Shown in pieces: positions 12,001 to 15,000 of a stretch of 64,000 bases of DNA. The position numbers are program-made. The first letter of the stretch is position 1, and every line of letters begins with the position of its first letter. This DNA is from Candidatus Aenigmatarchaeota archaeon (GTDB lineage Archaea > Aenigmatarchaeota > Aenigmatarchaeia > CG10238-14 > SCSR01). Location: positions 1 to 64,000 of the forward strand of contig JAWBWS010000003.1 in the NCBI GenBank assembly GCA_038999725.1, written 5' to 3'.

Positions 12001-15000
12001 TCGCCCACTTCAATTTCAACTTCCATGCTATCGCCAATTACTATAGTTGTTCTGCTTTATATATAAAATCTTTGATTGTTGAAAATAAATTATGGGTGTA
12101 AGGGGATTTATTAGGGACATCGTAGGAATTTATCTTGGATTTGAAATTATAAGAGGAACTATAACAAAGCATTTTGAAATTACCACTCCCATAATTGCTT
12201 GTGGAGCAATCCTTTTGATTTTTGGTGTGTGGTTTATTCTCGAAAGAGTAGGAATACTTCCAAAATTATAAAGCTAAAAAAACAAAATCTTTTTCATGGG
12301 AATTGTGAAGAGTATTTGTATTTATTGCGGTTGCGGTTGTAGGTTAAAATTTCAGGTTGAGGGGAAGAAAATAAAGAAAGTCATGCCGGATGAAGAAGAC
12401 CCTGTGAGCAAAGGAAAGCCATGTATCAAGGGCTTAACAATTCATGAAGTTGTTGATAGGGGAAGAATCCTTCACCCAATGATAAGATATGGCAAAAAAT
12501 TGAAGAAAGTGAGTTGGGAAAAAGCTTATGAATACATCAAAAAGAATTTGGAAAATCTCTTGCCAGATGAGATTTTTTTCGTGCCCTCAGGAAAAACCAC
12601 AAATGAGGATAACTATGTTATGCAAAAATTTGCTAGACTGTTAGGAACTAACAATGTCGATGTTTGTTGCACAAGAGTTTGCCACAGGGCTACGGTTCAA
12701 GCTCTTGCCAATGTATTTGGAATAACTGCAAATCCCTGGGGGATGGAAGATATTTACGATAGAGATTGCATTTTGATAATCGGTTCAAACCCAGCATCAA
12801 ATTATCCTGTGCTTTTCAACAGGCTTTTGGAAGCAAAGAGAGGTGGTACAAAAATAATTTGTGTCCAGCCAATTAGAAACCAGACTTCAGAGCATGCTGA
12901 TGAATTACTTTTGATTGAATCTGGCTCAGAAACCGCCCTATTAAATGGAGTGATGAATTTTTTGATTGAAAAAAAGAGTTATGATGAAAGTGCTGAGAAA
13001 ATTGAAGGGTTTGGGAATCTTGCCCAGCTTGTGAAAGATTACACTCCTGATAAAGTTTGTGAGATTTGTAAAATTTCAAGGGAGAAATTTGAAAATTTTG
13101 CTAAGATGATAGCAGAATCAAAAAAATTTGGGGCTATGCATGGCATGGGTCTAACCCAACATGTGAACGCGATAGAAAATGTTCACTCTCTGCTTAATTT
13201 GATTTTGCTTAAAAATGGGAAGCTTTTGTCTTTCCGTGGCGAAGTCAATGTTCAAGGGGCGGGGGATATGGTTGGTTCTCCCGATCAATTACCAACAGAT
13301 CACATAATGGATTTTGATAAATTGGAAAAATTTTGGGGGAAGAAAATAGAAATTAAAAAAGGTAAGAATATTGTTGAAGCTTTTTTGATATCGCCTGTAA
13401 AAGCTTGTTTTATCTCTGGGTTTAATCCTGCTCAATCTATGCCTAACTTGAATCAAGTACACAAGAACTTGAAAAAGATGTTCTTAATTCAAATGGACAG
13501 TTATTTCAATTTAACATCAAAATTTGCAAAAGTGATTTTACCAGTTCCTTTGCTAATCGAAAAAAATGGAACTATAACAAACGGTGAAAGAAGAGTGAGG
13601 CTTGTGAAAAAAGTAAGAGAAACTGTAGGAGAGGCTAAGCCTGAATGGTTGATATTCAAGGAATTAAGCAAATATTTTGGTCTTGAAAAATTCTTCAAAT
13701 ACAAGAAGGAAAAGGAGATATTTAAAGAAATAGTTGAAATGATCCCATCTTATTCCAAAATAGACTACGACTTTCTTTATCTTGGAAATGACGCTTGGGT
13801 GGACAAAGAAATAAAATTCAAAAGATTTATGCCAGAAAAATTTGAAGGTTTGGGAGAAATTAGGAGTAAAAAGTATCCATTTATTTTAACAACTTTTCGC
13901 TCACCTTATCGCTTTTTAACTAATGAAGCTACTTCTAAATCTAAAACTCTCAAAAAATTTGATGTAGACTTTTGCTACATTAATGAAAAAGATGCAAAAA
14001 GGCTTAGGATAAAAGACGGTGATTGGATAGAAGTCTTTAACTCAAATGGCAAAGTTAAAGTTAGAGCAAAAATTGACAAGTTTCTGCCAGAAGGTTTAAT
14101 CGGTATGCACTTTCACTCAGAAAAAATCTTAGTTAACAAACTTTTCCCAACACAATTTGATGAAGAAAGCTTCCAACCCAATTTCAAAGCGGTGGCCGTG
14201 CAAATTAAGAAATTAACTCCTAGATGTGCTTGTTAATTTAGCTTTTATCACATTAGGTATCTCTTCTATCAAATCGCTTGCCAATAAACTTTCTCCATAT
14301 TTTTTAGCTGCTAGCTCACCCGCTTTACCATTAACAAAAGCAGCAGCACAAGCTGAAGTAAAGGTATCAAGACCCCTTGCTAAATAAGCTCCACAAATTC
14401 CTGCTAGAGTGTCACCAAGACCACCTTTTGTCATATAGGGTGAGCCAGTCTTGTTTATAGCAGTTTTGATTCCATTTGAAATAACATCTATGTGCCCTTT
14501 TAACAAAACAGTTGCTTGAAGTTTATTTGCAATTTTGTTCACACTCTCGATCCTTTCTTCAACATTCTTGCTCACTTTTATCCCAGAGAGAATAAAGAAT
14601 TCGTAGGAGTGAGGCGTTATAACAACTTTTTTTCCTTTAATTGCTTTCTCATCCTTAGCTAAAGCATGAATGGCGTCTGCATCTATAACAACAGGTAGTT
14701 CAACTCTCCTTAAAAATTCAAGGATGAAATCTAAAACTTCTTCGCTTCTAGACATGCCACCCCCAATAACAACAGCAGTTTTATTTTTTGTTAACTCCAA
14801 AACTTCATCTAAATTCTTCTTCGTGAAAAAATCTCCTTCAATTGGAAAAGCTATCAAGTCTGGTTTAAAGCTTCTGATAACATAAGCCGTTTTTTCTGGT
14901 GCCACTATTGTGGCCAAATCAACACCTGCACGCAAAGCAGCTAAAGCATTGAAAGCTGGAGAGCCAGAGTAGAATTTGCTTCCGCCCACAACCAGTAAAT

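Follow-up and report, generated by a model that had tools for sequence, protein, structure and literature searches.

The window analysed here, a 64,000-nucleotide stretch of a Candidatus Aenigmatarchaeota genome, encodes at positions 12296-14236 (+ strand) a 646-aa formate dehydrogenase (FDH)-like Mo/W-bis-pterin oxidoreductase that is intact and under purifying selection, in a lineage without synthesis of the Mo/W pterin cofactor: the pathway is missing in the family, and MoaC is nearly so in the phylum. An intact and selected pterin enzyme in the absence of the pathway would have to draw its cofactor from elsewhere, and the best explanation, which we regard as probable, is acquisition from outside, the enzyme being loaded with pterin made by another organism.

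An FDH-like enzyme with a complete active site

The interval 12296-14236 is an open frame on the + strand, the opposite strand being crowded with stops; no RNA datasets are listed for the stretch, and its DNA datasets are labelled hot-springs metagenomes, with three among them that may represent the sample of origin. The protein carries a Molybdop_Fe4S4 domain (residues 3-54; PF04879, E 2.5e-15), followed by complete Molybdopterin (57-460; E 5.2e-49, PF00384 model positions 1-353 of 353) and Molydop_binding domains (529-633; PF01568 model positions 1-109 of 110). Direct reading of the sequence finds Cys8, Cys11, Cys15 and Cys43, which make up the N-terminal CxxCxxxC...C 4Fe-4S motif of the FdhA/FdhH type, and VDVCCTRVCHR. 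The active-site set of this type is also present, with the ligand pair Cys129-His130 (in R127-x-C129-H130), Arg314, and Lys45 between cluster and pterin; the corresponding FdhH active-site residues are numbered Sec140, His141 and Arg333. According to the excerpted text of PMC12176258, K44R was the one K44 substitution of those examined that left E. coli FDH-H active.

The closest solved structure is the alpha subunit of an F420-dependent FDH (9t1s_L, E 8e-101), in whose alignment Cys129 pairs with a non-standard residue 'X' followed by His, and E. coli FdhH matches at E 3e-74. The AlphaFold model (pLDDT 90.8) reaches a TM of 0.93-0.94 against the FDH structures 7vw6_A and 1fdi. The genome-wide survey's note had described a complete FdhA-type enzyme, which holds as to intactness and catalytic residues but not as to class: with 513.3 bits against the NCBIfam FdhA model TIGR01591 (cut-off 666.25), the product is FDH-like and not a certified FdhA. 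Neither a FocA formate channel nor PFL was found in the genome carrying the gene (G000), so it is the active-site residues that point to formate as substrate.

Selection and genomic setting

The enzyme gene lies on a 116-kb contig amid housekeeping genes, with a GC content of 0.35 (0.34 for the window). Its ortholog in the relative G053 is 79.9% identical and the neighbouring genes 77.7-80.8%, which bears out the note's claim of about 80% identity, as conserved as the flanks, and synteny is kept in the genus. Nonsynonymous change is sparse (pN 0.08-0.11) and synonymous change close to saturation (pS 0.65-0.74), the neighbours being alike in this respect. Across the phylum, frames are open without stops in all but two genes, and the spread is patchy (47 of 370 genomes).

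The cofactor pathway is missing

All genomes considered are metagenome bins (MAGs), comprising a family set of 69 (with completeness of 90% or more in 20) and a phylum set of 370; G000 itself is 93.05% complete with 0.22% contamination. Pathway searches, whose positive controls were found in 8-14 of 14 reference genomes, recovered MoaC in none of the 69 family genomes, as the note had stated, and reproduced its count of PF00384 (17 of 69 genomes, 8 of 27 genera). Over the cut-offs, Mob_synth_C (the MoaA C-domain) and MoaE, both left unsearched in the note, were likewise absent from all 69, as were MoeA_N and FdhD. At the scale of the phylum, MoaC occurs in 2 of 370 genomes, and in 0 of 98 high-quality ones. 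The MoaB/MogA/MoeA-type domain that the note had seen in a single relative corresponds to one MoCF_biosynth match among the 69 genomes (G046); the count stands, but the match is CinA-like and was rejected as MogA/MoaB.

In G000, none of MoaA, MoaC, MoaD/MoaE, MogA/MoaB and MoeA was found, nor MobA or ThiS/MoaD, nor a ModA/WtpA-type binding protein. Three PF12804 matches in this genome were set aside as MobA, being sugar-1-phosphate nucleotidyltransferases or a glycosyltransferase, and the radical SAM gene at 5327-6457 was rejected as MoaA (best match AmmeMemoRadiSam/activase-like). The late steps of FDH cofactor synthesis are GMP attachment by MobA and sulfuration by FdhD. An independent survey reports neither MoeA nor ModA/WtpA/TupA in DPANN, in the excerpts of PMC11733289 considered here.

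Two clades of FDH-type enzymes

FDH-type enzymes of the Aenigmatarchaeota fall into two clades, type A (26 genomes, including the 646-aa enzyme) and type B (16 genomes), and all 42 carriers retain the catalytic residues. Type A scores under the FdhA cut-off and forms its own clade outside the canonical FDHs (SH-like support 100), with phyla intermixed in its tree; type B is canonical FdhA, a paralog of this type passing TIGR01591 at 817.8 bits (cut-off 666.25). The residues C8/C11/C15/C43, K45, R127, C129, H130 and R314 are invariant in both clades across the phylum (for type A, in 25 of the 25 sequences covering the positions), and motifs common to canonical FDHs are kept across 35%-identical paralogs. 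Missing clade-wide in type A are the canonical D-x-R motif (Q191 and I193 in the 646-aa protein) and the Gly-rich loop before R314.

Type A is also found in TACK archaea, where MoaC is present in 4 of 5 genomes, and in other DPANN and CPR genomes, where it is present in 0 of 5; among the loci sampled, most type A genes belong to MoaC-less members of the DPANN and CPR. Measured over 63 columns with a conservation of 90% or more among 17 canonical FDH representatives, the fraction kept is 0.717 in Aenigmatarchaeota type A versus 0.727 in TACK type A, so that conservation at canonical positions is, by this alignment measure, equal to that of orthologs from cofactor-proficient archaea. A 'CC' preceding the catalytic Cys was considered as a type A signature and dropped, basal type A members being without it; E. 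coli FdhH also has 'CC' ahead of its catalytic residue.

An orphan MobA-like gene beside type B

A MobA-like gene flanks the type B FdhA in 12 of 16 genomes, versus 0 of 26 for type A, none of whose carriers has a MobA. MobA proteins are typified by a length of about 190 aa, an NTP_transf_3 domain and an N-terminal LAGGxSxR motif. The MobA-like genes score 84-126 bits with PF12804; the best NCBIfam match is the MobA model NF001457 in five of six (70-134 bits, cut-off 164) and another MobA model, NF001837, in the sixth, all six remaining under the equivalog cut-offs, and the best PDB matches, 2e8b and 3ngw, are both MobA. All 14 MobA-bearing genomes lack MoeA_N. An orphan MobA-like gene beside FdhA and without MoeA_N would be sensible only if metal-pterin is available from outside; type B carriers, at least, seem to import metal-pterin and to complete the cofactor themselves via this putative MobA, which argues that the imported species in type B lineages is the metal-pterin before GMP attachment. 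In one genus, ORFs of 155 and 93 aa lie downstream of the type B FdhA and belong to no Pfam family.

A small membrane protein linked to pterin enzymes

Co-directional with the enzyme gene and 24 bp upstream of it, a gene at 12092-12271 (+), single copy in G000, encodes a 59-aa membrane protein with the motif MGxRxxxRD ... WFxLE[KR]xG and a single helix of strong hydrophobicity at about residues 28-52. No Pfam family matches it, and neither the protein atlas nor source names yielded a usable lead. Members of this family adjoin type A, type B with MobA, a PhsA-like enzyme (with MobA), and a tungsten AOR, whose fold differs from that of the other pterin enzymes here, the pterin cofactor and Fe-S being all that they have in common; at two further loci (L168 and L172), the small gene is paired with MobA alone. 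Starting from the small gene, linkage to a pterin enzyme or MobA is seen in 33 of 41 metagenome loci; starting from the enzymes, the small gene is intact within short flanks at only 10 of the 26 loci of type A and at 10 of the 16 of type B. The G053 assembly, 88% complete with about 574 kb in 13 contigs, contains the enzyme and no copy of the small gene, which is thus not obligatory; G057, a genome without the enzyme, has no copy either. The recurrent company of cofactor-related genes suggests that the 59-aa protein is a candidate factor for cofactor acquisition or insertion.

Probable acquisition from outside and its alternatives

The product of 12296-14236 would be a functional, cytoplasmic, monomeric FDH-H-like enzyme, with a single 4Fe-4S cluster and with Mo or W ligated by Cys and held by two pterins, and most likely interconverting formate and CO2. 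We infer that it really binds the cofactor and that the cofactor is imported. The organism would be unable to make the cofactor and would charge the enzyme with one obtained from host or neighbouring cells, possibly in protein-bound form, the 59-aa membrane protein perhaps helping in acquisition or insertion. Type A enzymes also turn up in MoaC-less genomes elsewhere in the DPANN and in the CPR. The note had proposed that a ready-made bis-pterin cofactor is pirated from the host across cell-cell contact. The intact and selected client enzyme without a pathway, now seen phylum-wide (42 carriers, MoaC in 2 of 370), upholds the core of that proposal; a 'ready-made' form is argued against in type B lineages by their orphan MobA-like gene and may or may not hold for type A, and the sequences do not separate a host in cell contact from lysed cells or from protein-bound environmental cofactor. 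With neither MobA nor FdhD, type A carriers would depend on a dinucleotide cofactor that arrives complete and already sulfurated, a chemically labile compound. Counterpoints to import are the sub-cut-off score of type A, its altered canonical motifs, the non-obligatory small gene and the fact that all genomes are MAGs.

Could type A have given up pterin binding, as NuoG and QrcB did, and now serve as a scaffold or Fe-S protein? Such a role would explain why type A thrives without the pathway and without MobA (which accompanies 12 of 16 type B carriers) and why its sampled loci are mostly in MoaC-less DPANN and CPR, and it would accord with the clade-wide D191Q and R193I changes, the loop deletion and the score under the FdhA cut-off. 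We nevertheless consider it unlikely, as no variation is seen in the catalytic Cys-His, Arg314 or Lys45, canonical motifs persist in distant paralogs, the TACK type A enzymes of MoaC-positive genomes show the same conservation, and the linked small protein also stands beside bona fide FdhA, MobA and AOR. A second possibility, that the organisms do make the cofactor through genes left unbinned or unassembled, or replaced by non-homologous enzymes, draws on the status of all genomes as MAGs (G000 being 93% complete), on a MoaA-like radical SAM gene in G056, of the same genus (194 bits, cut-off 231, on a low-GC contig), and on some 18 radical SAM paralogs without assigned role on contig C2 of G000. 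These paralogs, however, are just 24-33% identical to the G056 protein, no Mob_synth_C occurs in G000, each of five specific families is missing above its cut-off from 69 genomes, with positive controls, MoaC is absent from 368 of 370 genomes including all high-quality ones, and the DPANN survey cited above agrees within its excerpts; missed synthesis is in our view improbable. A non-functional relic, a recent transfer or bin contamination, which the patchy distribution and the mixing of phyla in the type A tree could suggest, is largely refuted by the long contig with its housekeeping neighbours and matching GC, the synteny within the genus, the open frames and the very low pN/pS, and we give it hardly any weight.

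If acquisition from outside is extended to a specific salvage system of DPANN (perhaps also CPR), a scheme that we put forward as speculative and rather doubtful, the 59-aa protein, which stands beside each class of pterin enzyme here, would belong to a machinery that captures host-made Mo/W-pterin at the membrane and passes it to the apo-enzyme, the orphan MobA would complete the cofactor where a canonical FdhA is used, and the MobA-less type A might accept a form that needs no GMP attachment, a cofactor variant new to the superfamily.

Relation to known systems and significance

With E. coli FDH-H (FdhF; PDB 1fdi/1aa6) and the FdhA of F420-dependent FDH (9t1s_L), the 646-aa protein shares the four-domain fold (TM 0.93), a similar length without signal peptide, the single N-terminal 4Fe-4S cluster with its adjacent Lys, the Cys/Sec-His pair and the active-site Arg. 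It differs from them in sequence (28-35% identity), in having Cys and not Sec, in falling below the FdhA model cut-off, in the clade-wide loss of the D-x-R motif and Gly-rich loop, in having no adjoining FdhB/HycB partner gene, and in a carrier without the whole cofactor pathway, FdhD and MobA included. NuoG/Nqo3 and QrcB, of the same superfamily (their NuoG and QrcB models match the protein at 130 and 111 bits), exist without pterin cofactor and have lost the catalytic residues, all of which the 646-aa protein retains.

The Mo/W pterin cofactor counts as too labile for a free existence, and no prokaryote is known to subsist on the supply of another cell. In animals, the excerpted accounts of dietary, protein-bound Moco uptake by Caenorhabditis elegans and of Haemonchus contortus, which is without synthesis (PMC7849362, PMC9793310, PMC7619442), show Moco enzymes running on the cofactor of another organism, as proposed here; unlike the nematode case, which concerns simple Mo-MPT for sulfite oxidase, the present one would be prokaryote-to-prokaryote, involves the bis-pterin dinucleotide class and is drawn from genomes. 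That DPANN obtain the cofactor from hosts is voiced in one sentence of the excerpted PMC11733289, with no client enzymes named there. To this the present analysis adds conserved client enzymes, an orphan MobA and a small membrane protein linked to them, and for none of the three was a precedent found in the excerpted literature on DPANN/Aenigmatarchaeota FDH, molybdopterin and cofactor salvage.

A whole archaeal phylum retains two selected pterin-enzyme clades without the pathway, and genomes sampled from further ultra-small lineages are alike for type A. This offers experimental handles, namely a reporter enzyme, an orphan last-step MobA hinting at the transferred species, and a candidate small membrane protein. 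If confirmed, acquisition from outside would reveal what moves from cell to cell in episymbiont-host pairs, would tie metabolic predictions to the partner in DPANN and CPR, where the presence of an FDH is commonly taken to mean formate metabolism, and would open a route to stable, transferable cofactor forms.

The neighbouring thioredoxin system

The enzyme gene has no partner gene such as FdhB or HycB beside it, and no conserved redox partner stands universally beside type A, the largest neighbour family other than type A itself being thioredoxin reductase-like. The electron partner may be the thioredoxin system or ferredoxin. On the - strand of the window, an NADPH-type thioredoxin reductase is encoded at 10723-11718 (TIGR01292, 350.9 bits, cut-off 343.45; HRRxxxR motif present), and a thioredoxin (Pfam Thioredoxin, E 1e-30) at 11694-12026, divergent from the small ORF and the FDH-like gene. 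Of 80 type A loci, 13 have a reductase-like gene at a distance of up to 8 kb, directly adjoining in six, the related loci among them not being independent; a thioredoxin gene is as close in 5 of 80, a recurrent neighbour that may belong to the enzyme unit.

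An intact pterin enzyme without a cofactor pathway

The gene at window positions 12296-14236 (+) is an uninterrupted frame of 646 codons, facing an opposite strand rich in stops, and encodes a formate dehydrogenase (FDH)-like Mo/W-bis-pterin oxidoreductase with three full-length Pfam domains (Molybdop_Fe4S4, residues 3-54; Molybdopterin, 57-460, E 5.2e-49; Molydop_binding, 529-633). The closest solved structures are formate dehydrogenases, namely F420-dependent FDH (9t1s_L, E 8e-101), HDCR FdhF (7qv7_S) and E. coli FdhH (1aa6, E 3e-74); the AlphaFold model (pLDDT 90.8) reaches TM 0.93-0.94 against FDH structures, and C129-H130 align onto a non-standard residue 'X' of 9t1s_L followed by His. 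The protein is called FDH-like since it scores 513 bits on the NCBIfam FdhA model, under the cut-off of 666. Formate/CO2 is predicted as its substrate from the Cys-His-Arg site alone, and as the cluster motif occupies the N-terminus from the outset, the enzyme is predicted to be cytoplasmic. Neither a FocA channel nor PFL was found in the genome, and no FdhB- or HycB-type partner gene adjoins the enzyme gene.

The assembly (G000), assigned to Candidatus Aenigmatarchaeota by the source names that close homologs bear, comprises 729,769 bp in 9 contigs, the window lying on contig 3, with a GC content of 0.32-0.36, 93.05% completeness and 0.22% contamination, and metagenomes containing DNA of the window are labelled as hot springs. 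The GC content of the enzyme gene (0.35) matches that of the window (0.34). In G053, of the same genus, gene order is kept and the ortholog is 79.9% identical, next to 78.2% for thioredoxin, 77.7% for thioredoxin reductase and 80.8% for NAD(P)HX dehydratase; nonsynonymous differences amount to 0.08-0.11 per site vs 0.65-0.74 for near-saturated synonymous ones, with similar values in the neighbours.

Cofactor synthesis was sought by six-frame profile searches, whose positive controls matched in 8-14 of 14 reference genomes. Across the 69 genomes of the family, none encodes MoaC, MoeA_N or FdhD, and none has a MoaE or MoaA C-domain match over cut-off (a single 24.5-bit match to the latter occurs in G056, a congener); the lone MoCF_biosynth protein (1/69) is CinA-like and was discarded as a cofactor-synthesis gene. 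G000 itself has no ThiS/MoaD or ModA/WtpA-type binding protein and only sub-threshold ThiF matches; its three NTP_transf_3 matches are sugar nucleotidyltransferases or a glycosyltransferase rather than MobA, and a model scan ruled out the radical SAM gene at window 5327-6457 as MoaA. MoaC is present in two of the 370 genomes of the phylum and in none of its 98 high-quality genomes. The genome-wide survey's note, which had described an intact pterin enzyme in a lineage devoid of the pathway, is thus borne out and extended to the phylum. This scarcity of MoaC and the family's missing pathway agree with the relevant passages of a published DPANN survey, in which MoeA and ModA/WtpA/TupA were not found (PMC11733289).

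G056 carries a 347-aa radical SAM protein (L018:1393-2436) whose best matches are MoaA models (194 bits vs a cut-off of 231), with no G000 ortholog and no MoaC partner, on a contig with a GC content of 0.30 vs 0.36 for the FDH contig of the same bin. Contig C2 of G000, which is not part of the window, has about 18 tblastn matches to this protein (23-33% identity) packed in ~40 kb (at ~54-95 kb), unusually many radical SAM paralogs for a genome of 0.73 Mb. One of the two MoaC-positive bins, G243, is 64% complete. Although the pathway is missing, 3/69 family genomes carry genes for AOR, the tungsten-type aldehyde:ferredoxin oxidoreductase, e.g. L138 (G020:C9), with one in-frame TAG, and L139 (G008:C24).

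Two enzyme clades and their cofactor site

PF00384 was detected in 17 of the 69 family genomes and in 47 of the 370 phylum genomes (28/170 genera). These 47 carriers divide into 26 with type A, the clade of the enzyme under study, 16 with type B, a second clade of canonical FdhA (31-36% identical to the enzyme; 817.8 bits, over the FdhA cut-off, for the one sequence scanned), and five others. Of these, one is PhsA-like, two are weak, and two lie on short contigs and carry an in-frame TGA. The TGA frames (G243:C114 and G075:C224; 954 and 1096 aa, one TGA each) could represent either selenocysteine FDHs or contamination of the bins. No genome of the phylum combines both types.

Scanning one genome per species by pattern plus tblastn yielded 105 relatives, 80 of which were kept. 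By record title they stem from Aenigmatarchaeota and other DPANN (Woese-, Pace-, Nano-, Micr- and Parvarchaeota), from CPR bacteria (Saccharibacteria, Microgenomates, Patescibacteria) and from TACK archaea (Bathyarchaeia, Brockarchaeota, Nitrososphaerota, Desulfurococcales, Acidilobaceae), further relatives coming from bins without taxon name; type A favours small-genome symbionts. Among 1.84 billion database representatives, about two dozen 50%-identity clusters score 400-740 bits, canonical FDHs following below. A FastTree phylogeny of 106 rows (79 of the 80 loci, a 419-aa fragment being left out, 4 family orthologs, 5 type B and 18 canonical representatives) recovers type A as a single clade (SH-like 100) with DPANN basal branches, and type B nested within canonical FDHs; some rows are the same genome reached by two tools, so that group sizes are not independent counts.

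C8, C11, C15, C43, K45, R127, C129, H130 and R314 are kept in all type A and type B sequences covering these positions. At 63 columns at least 90% conserved across 17 canonical FDH representatives, Aenigmatarchaeota type B retains a fraction of 0.959, and type A retains 0.727 in TACK, 0.717 in Aenigmatarchaeota, 0.702 in CPR and 0.655 in other DPANN. The type A departures are clade-wide: the D-x-R motif (Q191/I193 in the enzyme of study), a deleted Gly-rich loop before R314, and Q435 replaced by R. MoaC was found in 4/5 TACK carriers tested and in 0/5 from DPANN/CPR; since MoaC-positive TACK genomes display the same departures, the symbiont site shows no relaxation when compared with that of cofactor-proficient carriers.

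An orphan MobA-like gene and a small membrane protein

A gene of ~190 aa adjoins FdhA divergently in 9/15 type B loci and encodes a MobA-like NTP_transf_3 domain (98-126 bits). Five of the six tested match best the NCBIfam model NF001457 MobA (70-134 bits, under the cut-off of 164) and the sixth another MobA model, NF001837; the closest solved relatives are the MobA structures 2e8b and 3ngw. Examples adjoining type B FdhA or a PhsA-like enzyme lie at L127:1489-2061, L126:1489-2052, L131:1486-2058, L134:1369-1953 and L130:1318-1932. Across the phylum, 14 genomes give matches of at least ~81 bits. Twelve of them are type B carriers (out of 16, the four remaining loci being cut short or poor in flank), another is the PhsA-like carrier G355, with the gene again adjoining, and the last is G067, which lacks a PF00384 match. 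None of the 14 has MoeA_N or MoaC. The gene is missing from all 26 type A carriers of the phylum, and five carriers from CPR and from DPANN outside the phylum gave no strong match. The substrate of MobA is finished Mo-MPT, and a lone MobA beside a client enzyme is thus the remnant expected from metal-pterin salvage.

In the 269-bp gap 5' of the enzyme gene lies a 59-codon ORF (12092-12271, +), ending 24 bp before the ATG. Its product, without Pfam family, has a single strongly hydrophobic helix, conserved ends and six residues invariant in 20 sequences (R4, R8, W47, F48, E51, G54). In the database it is represented by 102 clusters of 52-65 aa, whose names are 'hypothetical' or generic, automatically assigned and seemingly unreliable; those with a taxon are Aenigmatarchaeota, Nanoarchaeota or Woesearchaeota. 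A profile of the small protein detects one copy in G000 and, across all loci collected, copies only directly adjoining pterin-enzyme genes: at 11 of 26 phylum type A loci (10 intact, one frameshifted), at 10/16 type B loci (in the order small gene, convergent MobA, FdhA), at the PhsA-like+MobA locus, at the G020 AOR locus (62% identity) and at one Woesearchaeota and one Nanoarchaeia type A locus, with none at collected TACK or CPR loci.

Linkage was also assessed without bias by taking the small protein as sole query against metagenome contigs, and 33 of the 41 loci found adjoin a pterin enzyme or MobA. Type A is 11-97 bp away and always co-directional in 22 (small gene upstream in 12, downstream in 10), type B is present in 7, AOR in one and a MobA-like gene only, 7 bp away, in three, one of these contigs ending 219 bp past the small gene. 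The remaining eight include three nearly flankless loci and five with other neighbours, weakest matches among them. On one metagenome contig (L190:3061-5613), an intein carrying a LAGLIDADG domain splits an RNA polymerase Rpb1-type subunit. The folds of AOR and FDH are unrelated, and what the two enzymes have in common is the pterin cofactor and Fe-S clusters; this shared cofactor, together with two loci with MobA alone, suggests that the small protein's function concerns the cofactor and not any single enzyme. The small gene is absent, like the enzyme, from the whole 620.6-kb genome of the congener G057; G053 has the enzyme and no small-gene copy in its assembly (88% complete, about 574 kb in 13 contigs). 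The small gene is therefore not a strict requirement.

On balance, the best explanation seems to be that the pterin enzyme works and is loaded with cofactor from an external source, as the survey's note had proposed with a host in mind. The imported species would be either the finished cofactor or metal-pterin. That a dedicated salvage system including the small membrane protein serves this import is a tentative extension, and rather doubtful. Cross-organism use of molybdenum cofactor is documented for nematodes (PMC7849362, PMC9793310, PMC7619442), and one sentence of PMC11733289 suggests it for DPANN; the literature searches brought up no paper describing, for these lineages, conserved client enzymes, a lone MobA or the linked small protein.

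Redox surroundings

The commonest type A neighbours are genes of thiol redox and ferredoxin metabolism. Among the 80 loci, a thioredoxin reductase (TrxR)-like gene is nearby in 13 and directly adjoining in 6, and thioredoxin (5), glutaredoxin (4), DsbD-like (3) and pyruvate:ferredoxin oxidoreductase (7) genes also occur; a tie of type A to cellular reductant supply is plausible but unproven. The TrxR of the window is of the standard NADPH type. On the strand opposite the enzyme, nitroreductase, glutamate dehydrogenase and thioredoxin reductase genes (9097-11718, -) form a redox-themed block with thioredoxin. In a Bathyarchaeia locus (L048:6808-7877), type A is directly preceded by a TrxR-like gene that is broken into ORFs of 198 and 161 aa.
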